Shown here piece by piece: positions 2,555 through 7,179 of a DNA stretch of 11,805 bases. The position numbers and the translations under genes are program-made. The notes under the pieces are model-generated. The model did not search any database. It worked only from the letters and a program-made list of their open reading frames with translations, and had not been told where the DNA came from. Within the stretch, counting starts at the first letter, position 1, and every line of letters starts with the position of its first letter. Source of the stretch: Candidatus Hermodarchaeota archaeon (GTDB lineage Archaea; Asgardarchaeota; Lokiarchaeia; Sigyniarchaeales; SOKP01); NCBI GenBank assembly GCA_048885925.1, contig JBHLLG010000090.1:1-11805 (forward strand). The letters are read 5' to 3'.

Positions 2555-3403
2555 ATGTCAGTACCTTCAAGCTTAAAATGTGGACCTCACACTACCCTTG
2601 TTTTAGTTAAAAAAAGATATCTAATATTCTACATTTTCCTAATTTGGGTAAGTATTTTTTCAATACAATTTGAATTTTGGCTATTTTGGAAATTATATGA
2701 ACCAAAATTTATTCATTTTGTATTGTTTCTTCCTCTTTTAATATTTGTCATGTATATAACATCTATAGCTATATCATTAATTTTCGCAAAGATTTTTTTA
2801 ATTGTTGTTAATTTAATTCATAGACCACGTGAAGGTATATTTCTAAGACATCATTCCGATAAAAATTATAGATATTGGAGTATAAGGAGTGTTATAAAAA
2901 AATGGCCTTTATGGCTATCTCATAAATTTCCTTTTCCATTTATTGATAATATATGCTTAAAAATGTTTGGAATAAAAAATACCTATTCTAATTCTCTTTT
3001 TGAGGGATTTATTGATACTGAACTTATAGAATTTGGAAAGAATGTAGTAGTTGGTGAATCAGCTATAATCCAATCAGCAGTTATAGTTGGAAATTTATTT
3101 ATTATAAAAAAAACCATAATTGAAGATAATGTAATGATTGGGGCTCACAGTGTAGTTATGCCTGGAACACATATAAAAAAAAATTCTATTCTAGCAGGAA
3201 GTTCAATGACTACTGTAGGGCAAGTTTTAGATGAAGATTATATATATTTGGGAGCGCCAGCCAAAAAATTCAAAAAGAATGTATTCATAGAAGAAGGTTT
3301 AGAAGAGATAATTGAAAGACAATTTGAAGAAGATTTAATCTCAGATGTTCAATATGAAGATTTATATACTATGAGAAAGGATAAGCATACTCAAATCAAA
3401 TAA
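2555..3403 (+). CDS. Membrane-anchored LbH acyltransferase-like protein, paralogue 3
   Basis: Two TM segments, PREGIF...YRYWSIR...FPFPF, hexapeptide repeats (IEFGKNVVVGESAII, IIEDNVMIGAHSVVMPGTHIKKNSIL) and YLGAPAK. AGGAGG at 2538-2543; starts 6 nt after paralogue 2. Confidence 0.78.
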   Translation: MSVPSSLKCGPHTTLVLVKKRYLIFYIFLIWVSIFSIQFEFWLFWKLYEPKFIHFVLFLPLLIFVMYITSIAISLIFAKIFLIVVNLIHRPREGIFLRHHSDKNYRYWSIRSVIKKWPLWLSHKFPFPFIDNICLKMFGIKNTYSNSLFEGFIDTELIEFGKNVVVGESAIIQSAVIVGNLFIIKKTIIEDNVMIGAHSVVMPGTHIKKNSILAGSSMTTVGQVLDEDYIYLGAPAKKFKKNVFIEEGLEEIIERQFEEDLISDVQYEDLYTMRKDKHTQIK

Positions 3404-4260: not shown

Positions 4261-5178
4261 ATGAAAATAGGATATCCTTGTATAAATTTGTCTTTAAATT
4301 GTAGGAGTAGTAGAACATTTCGTTTAAAGAATTATTCAGTAGAAAGACTCATAGAGACTATTGAAAATAATTTAAATTGCTTGTTGAAAATATTAGAATT
4401 TAACTATATTAACAAAATTTTCTTTTTTAGAATAACTTCGGATTTAATTCCTTTTGCTTCTCATCCTGTTATGCAATTTGATTGGCAACAACATTTTAAA
4501 ACGAAATTTAAAGAAATTGGTACATATATAAAGAAAAATTCTATGCGAATCACCATGCATCCAGGTCAATATACAGTTCTTAATTCTAAAAATGAAAAAG
4601 TGGTTCAAAATAGTATTAAAGAATTAGAATATCATGTAAATATTTTAAATTCACTAGGCTTAGATTCAGAAGCGAAAGTAATCACCCATGTGGGAGGCGT
4701 TTATGGTGATAAAAAAAATAGCATTAAACGGTTTATAGAAAGATATAGAGAGCTTGATGATAAAATAAAAAATCACTATGTTATTGAAAATGACGATAAA
4801 TATTATCAGTTGAAGGATTGTTTGTTAATCAATCAATCTACACAGATGCCAATTATTCTTGACACATATCATCATTATTGTCATAATGAAGGAGAATCTT
4901 TAGAAAATGCGATAAAATCTATATCCAATACATGGAAAGATAGGGATGGGATACCAGTTTTACATTATAGTTCTGAACATCCCTATAAAGGCAAATATAG
5001 ACATGCTGATGAAATTGATCTAAATCATTTCAAGAGCTTTTTAAAACAAACAACCAATTTCAATTTCGATCTAATGTTAGAAATTAAAAACAAAGAAAAA
5101 AGTGCTCTAATTGCTGTAAAAAGTCTAATTAATGATATTAGATTTAATCAAGATCTAATAGAATTATTAAATAATTAG
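4261..5178 (+). CDS. uvsE: UV DNA damage repair endonuclease UvsE (UVDE)
   Basis: Diagnostic motifs GYPCIN, FFRITSDLIPFASHP, MHPGQY, HVGGVYGDK, IENDD, LDTYHH, HYS, HAD and DLMLEIKNKE. Confidence 0.95.
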   Translation: MKIGYPCINLSLNCRSSRTFRLKNYSVERLIETIENNLNCLLKILEFNYINKIFFFRITSDLIPFASHPVMQFDWQQHFKTKFKEIGTYIKKNSMRITMHPGQYTVLNSKNEKVVQNSIKELEYHVNILNSLGLDSEAKVITHVGGVYGDKKNSIKRFIERYRELDDKIKNHYVIENDDKYYQLKDCLLINQSTQMPIILDTYHHYCHNEGESLENAIKSISNTWKDRDGIPVLHYSSEHPYKGKYRHADEIDLNHFKSFLKQTTNFNFDLMLEIKNKEKSALIAVKSLINDIRFNQDLIELLNN

Positions 5179-5221
5179 CGATATATTTTTTAAAATCAGA
5201 AATTTGTTATTATTGATGAGT

Positions 5222-5686
5222 ATGATTAAATTACCAAAAATGGAAGAAAGGGAAATAAAAGAAGCATTTAATACACATAATTTATGTAGAATCGCATTTA
5301 TTGATGATAAATACCCATATATTGCACCATTTCAATATGCTTATATAGGTGATGTTTTTTATTTTCATTTTACAGATTATGGTAAAAAAAAGGAAATAAT
5401 AATGAAAAATCAAAACATTTGTATATCAATTGAGCATTTCGAGCAAGATTTAAGTGGATATTATTTTATTTCAATGCAAGGTAAATTAGAATTGGTAGAG
5501 GATGATAATTTAAAAGAAAAAGTCATGAATCACATGGCAAAATCAGCAAAAATGAAATATTCAAAAAATTTTTTATCAGTCCATGGATTTAAAAAGAGTG
5601 AAGGTTGGGATGTTTTTACAGCAAAAGAACAATTGATTTATAGATTCAAGCCAATTGGACCTCCAATTGGTTTAAAATCTATTTAA
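5222..5686 (+). CDS. Pyridoxamine 5'-phosphate oxidase-like (NimA-like) flavin-binding split-barrel protein
   Basis: LCRIAF..D.YPYIAPFQY, FYFHFTDYGKK, N.NICISIE and SMQGKLELVED are typical of this fold. Start uncertain: TTG 5204, ATG 5216 or ATG 5222. Confidence 0.8.
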   Translation: MIKLPKMEEREIKEAFNTHNLCRIAFIDDKYPYIAPFQYAYIGDVFYFHFTDYGKKKEIIMKNQNICISIEHFEQDLSGYYFISMQGKLELVEDDNLKEKVMNHMAKSAKMKYSKNFLSVHGFKKSEGWDVFTAKEQLIYRFKPIGPPIGLKSI

Positions 5687-5739
5687 AACTACTGAAATTT
5701 TGTAATATAAAAAAATATTTAGATACTAATTAAAATTTT

Positions 5740-5808
5740 GATTTGGATAAGTGTGGCCAACTTTTAAAAATAAAATCTCGTTTTTCATTATTTTATTTCT
5801 TCCAAATC
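5740..5808 (-). promoter_or_regulatory. 3'-UTR stem-loop with AUGA...GA, candidate SECIS-like element
   Basis: On the minus strand just after the stop: outer 8-bp stem GAUUUGGA/UCCAAAUC (5808-5801 with 5747-5740), and inner stem AGAAAUAAAAU/AUUUUAUUUUU (5800-5790 with 5776-5766) closing the loop AAUGAAAAACGAG. Confidence 0.4.
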
Positions 5809-5809
5809 G

Positions 5810-6283
5810 TTATTCATTAATTTTTTTTAGAACCTGTAAAATCTCTTCATTTTCTGGAATATCATGCATATTTTTTCCATAATAGGCGTATTGAATGATA
5901 CCATTTTTATCGATTACTAATAATCCAGGCATTCGACCCAGTTTGCTTAACCTTACTTCTTGTTTTAACATTTCAGCAACTTGCTTTGATTCATCATAAA
6001 AAATAGGATACTTTCTAGCATATTTTTGTTCCATTTTTATAGCATTATCTTCATTATCTACTAATATTGGATATAAATAGCCATCCAATTCTTCAAATTT
6101 TTCTATATCTCTCCTTAATCTAGCAGCATGCCAACGACAAAATGGTCAATTGATATTTCTAAATAATACAAGCACAACATTCCTTTTACTTTCAAAATCT
6201 CTGATATTAATTGTTTCTCCTCTAGAATTTGGTAAACTAAATTCTTTGACTTTAGTCCCTACTAAATTGAATTTATCTTTCAA
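5810..6283 (-). CDS. Peroxiredoxin-like (AhpC/TSA, thioredoxin-fold) protein with in-frame TGA, probable selenoprotein (UxxC), 157 aa
   Basis: From TTG 6283 it reads MKDKFNLVGTKVKEFSLPNSRGETINIRDFESKRNVVLVLFRNIN-[TGA 6148..6146]-PFCRWHAARLRRDIEKFEELDGYLYPILVD..., continuing in frame into the listed 5810..6088 ORF (RMPGLLVIDKNGIIQYAYYG). The N-terminal F.LP...G..I pattern is typical of AhpC/TSA. AGTGA (SD-like) precedes the TTG, and an in-frame TAA lies further upstream. Confidence 0.82.
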
Positions 6284-6363
6284 TTTAACATCACTTTGGT
6301 TTTGATTTATATATTAAATAAAAATAAAATAAATATTGCTTAATTATATATTCTTTAAAATTT

Positions 6364-7179
6364 CTACGGTTGTAGTATCCCAGCAAAAGCTAACCAAGCT
6401 AACAGTGATTTTGCAACTAAACTTAAGATTATGTAAACACGTTCACCGAAGAGATAATCTTTCCAAGGTCCTACTCCTTTATATTGAAGTATCTGATTAA
6501 TGGCAAAACTATTGAATAAAACTAAATAGGTATAAAATATCCAATAGACGAAATCAGGTATACCCTCAGCATCTACACCATAAAAGTAACCAATAATGAC
6601 AATCCAAGGAATAGCACCAGAGATACATCCTAAAATGAAAGGCTTCCAGTTTGTTTTTTCTGTATACTGATTAACTAGCTCCATCATATAACCAAACATT
6701 ATCATCATAGCATTCAAAACAAAAATCATAATCAATGACCAAATGTCCCACACACCAAAAAGTAATGAAAGAAAAACTATCATAATTGAACTAGATAAAG
6801 CATATTCATACCAACGGTATGGATTAAAGCCCTTTTTAAGATGATTATTATATCTTTCATTCAATGGATAAGCGATTAAAAAATGAGCTAAAGCAGATAT
6901 TAGTAAGAATGAAGCCAAGACTGCTCCAAAATATGTTACAGTAAATAATACCTCAGGATTTGGATATATATTAAAAATATCAGGTGGAGTAAACTCATAA
7001 GTCAAATAAAAAGTATAAATATCTCTAGAGAAATTTAAAATCAGACCTACAGTCAACATTAATATTCCTTGTATCAAATGTAAGATACCCATATTCCGAT
7101 TAAACTTTTGCAAATAATCAAATGATATAGCAGAGCTTGCAATAATTTCTTGTCGTTCTTTAAAATTCATTTTAACCAT
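6364..7179 (-). CDS. heR: Heliorhodopsin
   Basis: Seven hydrophobic segments with the heliorhodopsin signatures LHLIQG (TM1 His), SALAHF (TM2 His), NPYRWYEYALSSSIM (TM3 Arg and Glu counterion), MIMFGYMME, FNSFAINQILQY, and GERVYIILSLVAKSLLAW (SxxxK retinal-binding Lys). ATG 7170 is an alternative start. Confidence 0.95.
   Translation of the reverse strand: MVKMNFKERQEIIASSAISFDYLQKFNRNMGILHLIQGILMLTVGLILNFSRDIYTFYLTYEFTPPDIFNIYPNPEVLFTVTYFGAVLASFLLISALAHFLIAYPLNERYNNHLKKGFNPYRWYEYALSSSIMIVFLSLLFGVWDIWSLIMIFVLNAMMIMFGYMMELVNQYTEKTNWKPFILGCISGAIPWIVIIGYFYGVDAEGIPDFVYWIFYTYLVLFNSFAINQILQYKGVGPWKDYLFGERVYIILSLVAKSLLAWLAFAGILQP

Follow-up and report, generated by a model that had tools for sequence, protein, structure and literature searches.

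Peroxiredoxin-like selenoproteins were described from Lokiarchaeota in 2016 (Mariotti et al. 2016, PMC4989117), and in 2024 PrxL was reported for 43.2% of the Asgard archaea that use Sec (Huang et al. 2024, PMC11227280). As described there, PrxL proteins have an AhpC/TSA fold and a redox box that reads C/U-x-x-C rather than T/S-x-x-C, with Sec as its first residue and no Cys elsewhere. The PrxL genes of 2016 carry a canonical lokiSECIS, according to PMC4989117, which defines this element as AUGA followed by a stem of 9 bp, whose 11-nt loop is A-rich at its start and has AG at its end, and then GA. The gene treated here shares the protein features of these PrxL genes and differs from them in the RNA behind its stop codon.

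The window, a stretch of 11,805 nucleotides from Candidatus Hermodarchaeota archaeon (contig JBHLLG010000090.1 of assembly GCA_048885925.1), almost certainly holds an intact PrxL selenoprotein gene at 5810-6283 on the minus strand. To our knowledge, every SECIS model and search tool published for Asgard archaea or eukaryotes is built on an AUGA_GA core. The 2016 PrxL genes have a canonical lokiSECIS, whereas the subfamily of the window has none (0/30 loci). What stands in its place is an RNA that shows covariation and is conserved across the phylum; it lies behind Sec forms of the gene and lacks the AUGA_GA core. The best overall explanation, which we consider very probable, is an intact Loki-type PrxL gene in which UGA46 encodes Sec, with a three-way-junction RNA as the probable signal.

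The first-pass annotation had assigned the gene to a known class, correctly, and had placed the novelty in this particular instance and its context. The gene itself does not bear out that novelty; the 3'UTR, with its element lacking the AUGA_GA core, is less ordinary. In the supplement of PMC11227280, Lokiarchaeia_..._U entries match PrxL over its whole length (...FRDIN-X-PFCRWHAARLRRD...) and the string CRWHAARLR occurs 24 times; because the exact subfamily stands in these 2024 Asgard selenoproteome data, the gene is not new. PrxL.1 and PrxL.2 are, in the portion of PMC4989117 available, other subfamilies than the one in the window, and the supplement types FFRGNW-X-SHCKKH and FFRGAW-X-YY-X-K look like PrxL.1/PrxL.2. 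The PrxL gene itself adds nothing new to biology; the 3'UTR element could matter.

Reading frame, protein fold and conservation of the TGA

The gene and the codons discussed below are as follows.

5810..6283, minus strand: PrxL gene, 157 codons and TAA (5810-5812), with a TTG start at 6283
6146..6148, minus strand: in-frame TGA, codon 46, predicted selenocysteine in the first position of the U-P-F-C redox box
6137..6139, minus strand: TGT encoding Cys49, the sole cysteine, which aligns with the Cys of S-P-V-C in the solved Bcp peroxiredoxin 2cx3
6284..6363, minus strand: A+T-rich spacer of 80 nt that separates the PrxL start from heliorhodopsin

The ORF caller caught only the last 92 codons (5810..6088, minus strand, 92 aa, TTG start). 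With TGA read as U, the frame at 5810-6283 on the minus strand yields 157 residues followed by TAA, with a single interruption, the TGA at 6148..6146. The U of codon 46 stands in ...VVLVLFRNIN-U-PFCRWH..., and both the coordinates and the motif given by the first-pass annotation proved exact. The orthologues support TTG 6283 as the probable PrxL start: at the 26 orthologous loci kept by the selection script, whose start-motif filter left out L026, L049, L052 and L053, the equivalent codon is ATG in 6, TTG in 9 and GTG in 1. TGA ends one of the 12 ORFs in the window and is the terminal stop in 4 of 30 PrxL orthologues; judging by these gene ends, TGA otherwise works as a stop in the PrxL lineage. 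Standard ORF rules call this gene and about 100 orthologues 92-aa fragments, though they are predicted to be intact redox enzymes.

Residues 8-132 of the PrxL protein match positions 1-123 of the 124 in the Pfam AhpC-TSA profile (E 1.7e-21, 76.8 bits, cut-off 26). Because the match covers these residues, the domain spans the TGA, and since it runs over the TGA, the 157-codon frame does not arise by chance. The Redoxin score is 59.1 bits, and the top NCBIfam family is 'SelL-related redox protein' at 51.9 bits, under its cut-off of 120. An AlphaFold2 model built on 30 orthologues (mean pLDDT 95.6) contains a strand at 35-41 and then a helix at 47-58; residue 46 is therefore at the N-terminus of the helix, the place of the redox box in the thioredoxin fold. 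Foldseek retrieves Sulfolobus Bcp1, Bcp4 and other peroxiredoxins with this model, at TM 0.82-0.87 and identity 19-24%. Pfam, AlphaFold and Foldseek thus bear out a peroxiredoxin-like protein of full length with the AhpC/TSA fold, and, as the fold takes in both sides of the TGA, the proposed intact 157-aa enzyme is favoured over a fragment.

The resemblance to Bcp/PrxQ proteins (Sulfolobus Bcp1, 3drn; Aeropyrum Bcp, 2cx3) extends from the fold to the profile level (E 2.6e-10). In the profile search of PDB sequences, U46-P-Y/F-C49 falls on S-P-V-C of 2cx3, so that the active-site Pro and Cys align; it falls on T-P-G-S of chain 3drn, where the Pro aligns, the fourth position is Ser and R117 falls on an Arg. 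The protein differs from Bcp/PrxQ in having Sec for the Thr/Ser of T/S-x-x-C, which makes the box a thioredoxin-like U-x-x-C, and in its low identity to them. C49 is the one cysteine among 157 residues, and the box is of the C/U-x-x-C type, not T/S-x-x-C, with Sec in the first position (U46-P-F-C49). Reading of UGA codon 46 as selenocysteine would place a U46-P-F-C49 box where the first helix of the peroxiredoxin/thioredoxin fold begins; Sec would stand where the classical peroxiredoxin T/S-x-x-C has Thr/Ser, and Cys49 at the Cys of that motif. The predicted chemistry is a selenenylsulfide/selenol-thiol cycle that would reduce peroxides or disulfides, with a thioredoxin-type reductant recycling PrxL.

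Homologues of PrxL at E<=1e-10 are present in 60 of 100 sampled genomes of the same order. The best 30 order-level loci all have U at the same site (30/30), as U-P-[F/Y]-C in 29 and as U-P-Y-A in one, a paralogue. A search of the phylum gave a match at E<=1e-6 in 178 of 399 genomes; among the 105 matches listed at E<=2.3e-35, 104 span residue 46, and 102 of these carry TGA (one TGA in 98, two in 4, none in the remaining 2). In a further 20 loci with 23 genes, U is at the site in 21 genes, 16 with U-x-x-C and 5 with U-x-x-U; both genes without TGA have Asp there, in L-M-D-L-F-C. The position of the TGA was verified in 51 of 53 homologous genes (30 order-level and 23 further). To the question raised earlier, whether homologues have Cys or TGA at this position, the 102 of 104 spanning matches answer TGA, not TGT/TGC. 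The Asp-form homologues are L055 (G224:C159) and the second gene of L056 (G223:C126), one of them in tandem with a Sec paralogue. Replacement of Sec by Asp instead of Cys is unusual.

Selection on both sides of the TGA was estimated from 11 genus-level PrxL genes (55 pairs; 53 pairs with dS>0.05 for codons 1-45). For codons 1-45 the median dN/dS came to 0.129, and for codons 47-155 to 0.082, with dS about 0.6-0.75. Relaxed selection 3' of the TGA, an outcome that the first-pass annotation had named as speaking against a selenoprotein, was not found, the median there being 0.08. The site 6146-6148 lies within contigs of X5 and X7, two runs that come from two other studies, and outside those of X12 and X16; because the X5 and X7 contigs carry identical letters there, the TGA is not an assembly error.

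Selenocysteine machinery of the genome

The genome (3.9 Mb in 181 contigs, 95% complete, 29% G+C) was searched for Sec machinery, as had been suggested; tRNA-Sec, SepSecS, selD and a SelB-type factor are present, and there is a partial candidate for PSTK. SepSecS is encoded at C8:83884-85185 (478.4 bits, cut-off 224.85). The tRNA-Sec gene lies just 5' of it, at C8:83691 to about 83815 (+), and SepSecS begins some 70 nt downstream. Inspected by eye, this tRNA shows UCA as its anticodon, 9 bp in the acceptor stem and 4 bp in the T stem. Its Rfam score of 34.1 bits is under the gathering score of 47 because the D-arm region holds an insert: when stretches were deleted in silico, 161 of the 1224 deletions led ARAGORN to call tRNA-SeC(tca), and nearly all of these 161 begin at nt 9-32 and take out 31-44 nt. 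An archaeal SelB-type factor of 472 aa is encoded about 6 kb upstream of tRNA-Sec/SepSecS; its score is 235.4 bits with the selB family (cut-off 242.25) and 139 with EF-Tu. This SelB-tRNA-Sec-SepSecS gene layout is the one reported for Loki in the available text of PMC4989117. selD reaches 176.7 bits (cut-off 125) and has an in-frame TGA of its own, in ...HGUSCK.... Of PSTK there is one candidate, at C154:1282-1534 (L020): an N-terminus of 51 residues that fits selen_PSTK best among the families, with 30.5 bits where the cut-off is 290.5. A 100-N scaffold gap follows after 51 codons, so the gene is visible as the N-terminus alone and is not scorable in this assembly.

The insert in tRNA-Sec measures about 31-44 nt and sits in the D-arm region; the Loki tRNA-Sec of PMC4989117 has, in the part of that paper available, a 31-nt intron in the T-loop. 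Over the whole genome ARAGORN found 12 tRNAs when introns were not searched for and 31 when they were, with many introns at non-canonical positions.

Other genes with in-frame UGA comprise four HdrA or HdrA-VhuD loci, multi-UGA genes among them, and one VhuU gene. Each of these loci is followed by a canonical lokiSECIS with AUGA, 9 bp, an 11-13-nt loop and GA or AA, and the five copies lie at C5 (-) 47984, C11 (-) 60221, C47 (-) 6017, C31 (-) 11818 and C7 (-) 33922. PMC11227280 counts as Sec-utilising an Asgard archaeon with at least three Sec-system genes, including tRNA-Sec, and one or more genes for known selenoproteins; the present genome belongs among them. Decoding would follow a route of the archaeal/eukaryotic type, through tRNA-Sec, PSTK, SepSecS, SelD and the SelB-type factor.

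Two explanations compete with Sec at codon 46. The TGA might reflect an error in sequencing or a nonsense mutation of recent date, in which case the locus would be a pseudogene or would survive as a remnant of 92 aa, which is what standard ORF calling, with the last 92 codons alone as its yield, would lead one to believe. We regard this as extremely improbable, given a TGA at the site in 51/53 genes and in 102/104 spanning matches, dN/dS of 0.08 downstream and 0.13 upstream of it, identical letters in contigs of two other studies and a fold for which both halves are needed. UGA might also be read through as some other residue, with Cys or Trp inserted by a near-cognate tRNA or through a reassigned code. 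Such a reading, to which the element behind PrxL lends some support by lacking the canonical SECIS core, is nevertheless very unlikely: TGA terminates genes in the lineage, the genome has a dedicated Sec system, and UGA also occurs, with Sec at known sites, in SelD, HdrA, VhuD and VhuU of the same genome, which belong to classical selenoprotein families. The redox-box position is, moreover, the documented Sec site of Prx-like proteins in the available part of PMC4989117. Selenocysteine insertion at codon 46 of an intact PrxL gene is thus the reading that we predict and carry forward.

The RNA element behind the stop codon

The following features describe the region 3' of the gene.

5721..5815, minus strand: match of the R1 covariance model (81.6 bits), a conserved 3'UTR element overlapping the stop codon
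5741..5807, minus strand: structured core of 67 nt, a three-way junction beginning 2 nt past the TAA
5802-5807 with 5741-5746, minus strand: P1
5790-5800 with 5766-5776, minus strand: P2, with its apical loop at 5777-5789, AAUGAAAAACGAG
5760-5763 with 5749-5752, minus strand: P3, with its loop at 5753-5759, UGGCCAC
5709..5715, minus strand: run of seven U after the element (sequence only)

An element at or just 3' of the stop codon is shared by all 30 order-level PrxL loci. In the genome, R1 has one copy at E<=1, at C90:5721-5815 (-), with 150 of 10,610 first-look candidates scored. The RNAalifold consensus is a three-way junction, in which P1 pairs AUUUGG with CCAAAU, P2 has 10-11 bp and an 11-16-nt loop, and P3 has 4 bp and the loop UAGCCAC. 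Over the 30 sequences, 95.6% of the cells are paired, against 36-59% with the partners slid; changes on both sides occur in 12 of 20 pairs, against 4-7 when slid, and none of 500 shuffles comes up to these figures. Strain variants support the proposed P2 pairing: 5798 and its partner 5768 change together in X7 (A-U to G-C), and in X12 and X16 5798 alone is altered, giving a G.U pair. Archaeal transcription termination uses oligo-T, and the seven-U run at 5709-5715 is a possible transcription end.

P2 measures 9-11 bp, and its loop has 13 nt in the window, 11-13 nt in the genus and mostly 16 nt in other genera. The loop of the genus, AA[A/U/C]AAAA(U/C)GAG, begins with AA and ends with AG in 13 of 13 copies, with GAG in 12; the copy in the window departs from the conserved letters, with ACGAG, not AUGAG. 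The P3 loop is near-invariant, UAGCCA being present in 43 of the 45 copies of relatives. The window has G for A here (UGGCCA), a letter common to all four runs compared.

All five canonical lokiSECIS also fold as three-way junctions in single-sequence folds, made up of a lower stem, the AUGA junction, a 9-bp stem-loop, GA/AA, a second hairpin and a return strand; this layout is unmentioned in the SECIS section of PMC4989117. The PrxL element agrees with them in lying directly past the stop and in its identical three-helix layout; lokiSECIS are found in the 3'UTR near the stop, and P1 of the window begins 2 nt after TAA. The stem of 9-11 bp and, within the genus of the window, the 11-13-nt apical loop with its A-rich start and AG end resemble those of the lokiSECIS, and the P2 loop of the genus nearly equals the loop of the canonical C31 element, GAAAAAGUGAG. 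The differences lie around the junction and in P3. In the PrxL element the positions of AUGA and GA form covarying Watson-Crick or G-U pairs, and the junction has shrunk, with 0-1 nt left at its 5' side and 2-3 nt, A-rich, at its 3' side. Its P3 loop is the near-invariant UAGCCA; in the canonical copies this loop varies from one to the next. Instead of AUGA 5' of the stem, the window reads UGGAAG before P2; instead of GA/AA 3' of the stem, UU/CU follows the 9-bp stem in the consensus, pairing and covarying, and the AA found in the window past the 11-bp P2 is the beginning of the A-rich linker.

Pattern searches gave the same picture. The strict lokiSECIS pattern is absent from the PrxL 3'UTR of the window, AUGA with a perfect stem and GA/AA occurs within 600 nt of the stop in 0 of 30 PrxL orthologue loci, and within that distance these 30 loci have no other conserved structure or canonical SECIS. 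A scan of 5500-6400 with Rfam at E<=10 returned chance-level matches and no SECIS family. The loose type I pattern of PMC11227280 (NNGAN...N[GA]ANN, at most 2 mismatches) matches 30 of 30 PrxL 3' regions, 7-38 times each, and is therefore uninformative in this A+T-rich DNA. The AUGA within the P2 loop of the window was considered as a SECIS core and rejected, as it has no partner stem and the 3' side of the loop is ACGA.

Outside the genus of the window, 22 of 32 copies have a 16-nt P2 loop of the form N-GAA...UGA-N, which sets GA opposite AUGA at the tip of P2. In archaeal box C/D sRNAs, L7Ae binds the K-loop (C'/D' motif), according to PMC6009581. Compared with it, the P2 loop 5'-N-GA-AAA...A-UGA-N-3' would have a D'-like UGA and after it a C'-like (A)UGA to close the terminal loop. 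Such loops could form tandem G.A pairs, and we speak here of a resemblance to the K-loop only. The 5' GA of the motif is missing from 12 of 13 copies in the genus of the window, and the 5' UGA that the window has in its P2 loop is a private variant, 5786 reading as A in all four other runs. In the literature on SECIS with archaeal three-way junctions or K-loops, no such Asgard element is described in the portions available.

In the genes examined, the element goes with the Sec form. Among the 21 further Sec genes (20 loci), R1 scores at least 49 bits 3' of 14, including all 5 with U-x-x-U, and 18-27 bits behind 4; at E<=1 there is no match behind the other 3 (L064, L065 and L066), which are divergent. 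There is no R1 match behind either Asp-form gene (2/2), though one of them adjoins a Sec paralogue bearing the element. L064 and L066, without a match, and L067 (18.6 bits) have G+C-rich stems and, by eye, a UAGCCA hairpin loop. The association between element and TGA rests on two related non-Sec genes, so shared ancestry could explain it.

A partner for the UAGCCA loop was sought by eye in tRNA-Sec and near the UGA, with a 4-nt match at most, and a pairing of the loop with either was dropped on that account. A genome scan for UNGCCA hairpins gave 179 matches and was uninformative. The three-way-junction descriptor returned 83 rows over the genome, which are chance-like; the row on C127 has no in-frame-UGA gene before it.

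We think it rather likely that the three-way junction is the SECIS of PrxL, a variant without the basal kink-turn core. The cis signal would most likely be the 67-nt junction, with AUGA_GA replaced by Watson-Crick pairs and a P3 loop of near-invariant UAGCCA. PrxL could instead be a selenoprotein whose junction is a terminator, a stability element or a regulatory element, while some other, unrecognised signal inserts Sec. The missing AUGA_GA core would fit such a role, as would L064, L065 and L066 without an R1 match at E<=1, and the non-Sec homologues that serve as controls number two. We nonetheless judge it unlikely. The junction lies at or overlaps the stop and has the three-helix layout of the five canonical lokiSECIS; its 9-11 bp stem and A-rich, AG-ending loop resemble the upper part of lokiSECIS as given in PMC4989117; no other conserved structure or canonical SECIS occurs within 600 nt; and L064, L066 and L067 (18.6 bits) keep the UAGCCA hairpin loop by eye.

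If the junction is a working signal, it bears on which part of a SECIS the archaeal machinery reads, and it supplies a new search model for hidden selenoproteins. A wider proposal, which we put forward tentatively and with doubt slightly the stronger, is that in the PrxL subfamily of several Asgard families the SECIS has lost its basal AUGA_GA kink-turn, keeps the scaffold and the apical loop, and adds the UAGCCA loop and, mostly, a K-loop-capable GA/AUGA pair at the tip. Were this true, searches that require the AUGA_GA core would miss selenoprotein genes, and the archaeal-to-eukaryotic route of SECIS would have included forms with the core moved or absent.

Genomic neighbourhood

The genes around PrxL in the window are given below.

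6364-7179, minus strand: heliorhodopsin gene (Pfam 318 bits), 80 nt upstream of PrxL on the same strand
5204-5686, plus strand: PNPOx-like gene, convergent with PrxL
4261-5178, plus strand: UvdE, UV-damage endonuclease, beyond the PNPOx-like gene

In 8 of the 29 other order-level loci searched, all eight of the genus of the window, heliorhodopsin and the PrxL orthologue are no more than 1.5 kb apart; at the same distance a PNPOx-like gene is found in 9 and UvdE in 6. Heliorhodopsin, PrxL, the PNPOx-like gene and UvdE may form a light/UV/oxidative-stress gene cluster. Elsewhere in the window, two paralogous hexapeptide-repeat transferase genes stand in tandem on the plus strand, at 1625-2548 and 2555-3403, and the first of them has TGA as its stop, with the second beginning 7 nt further on.
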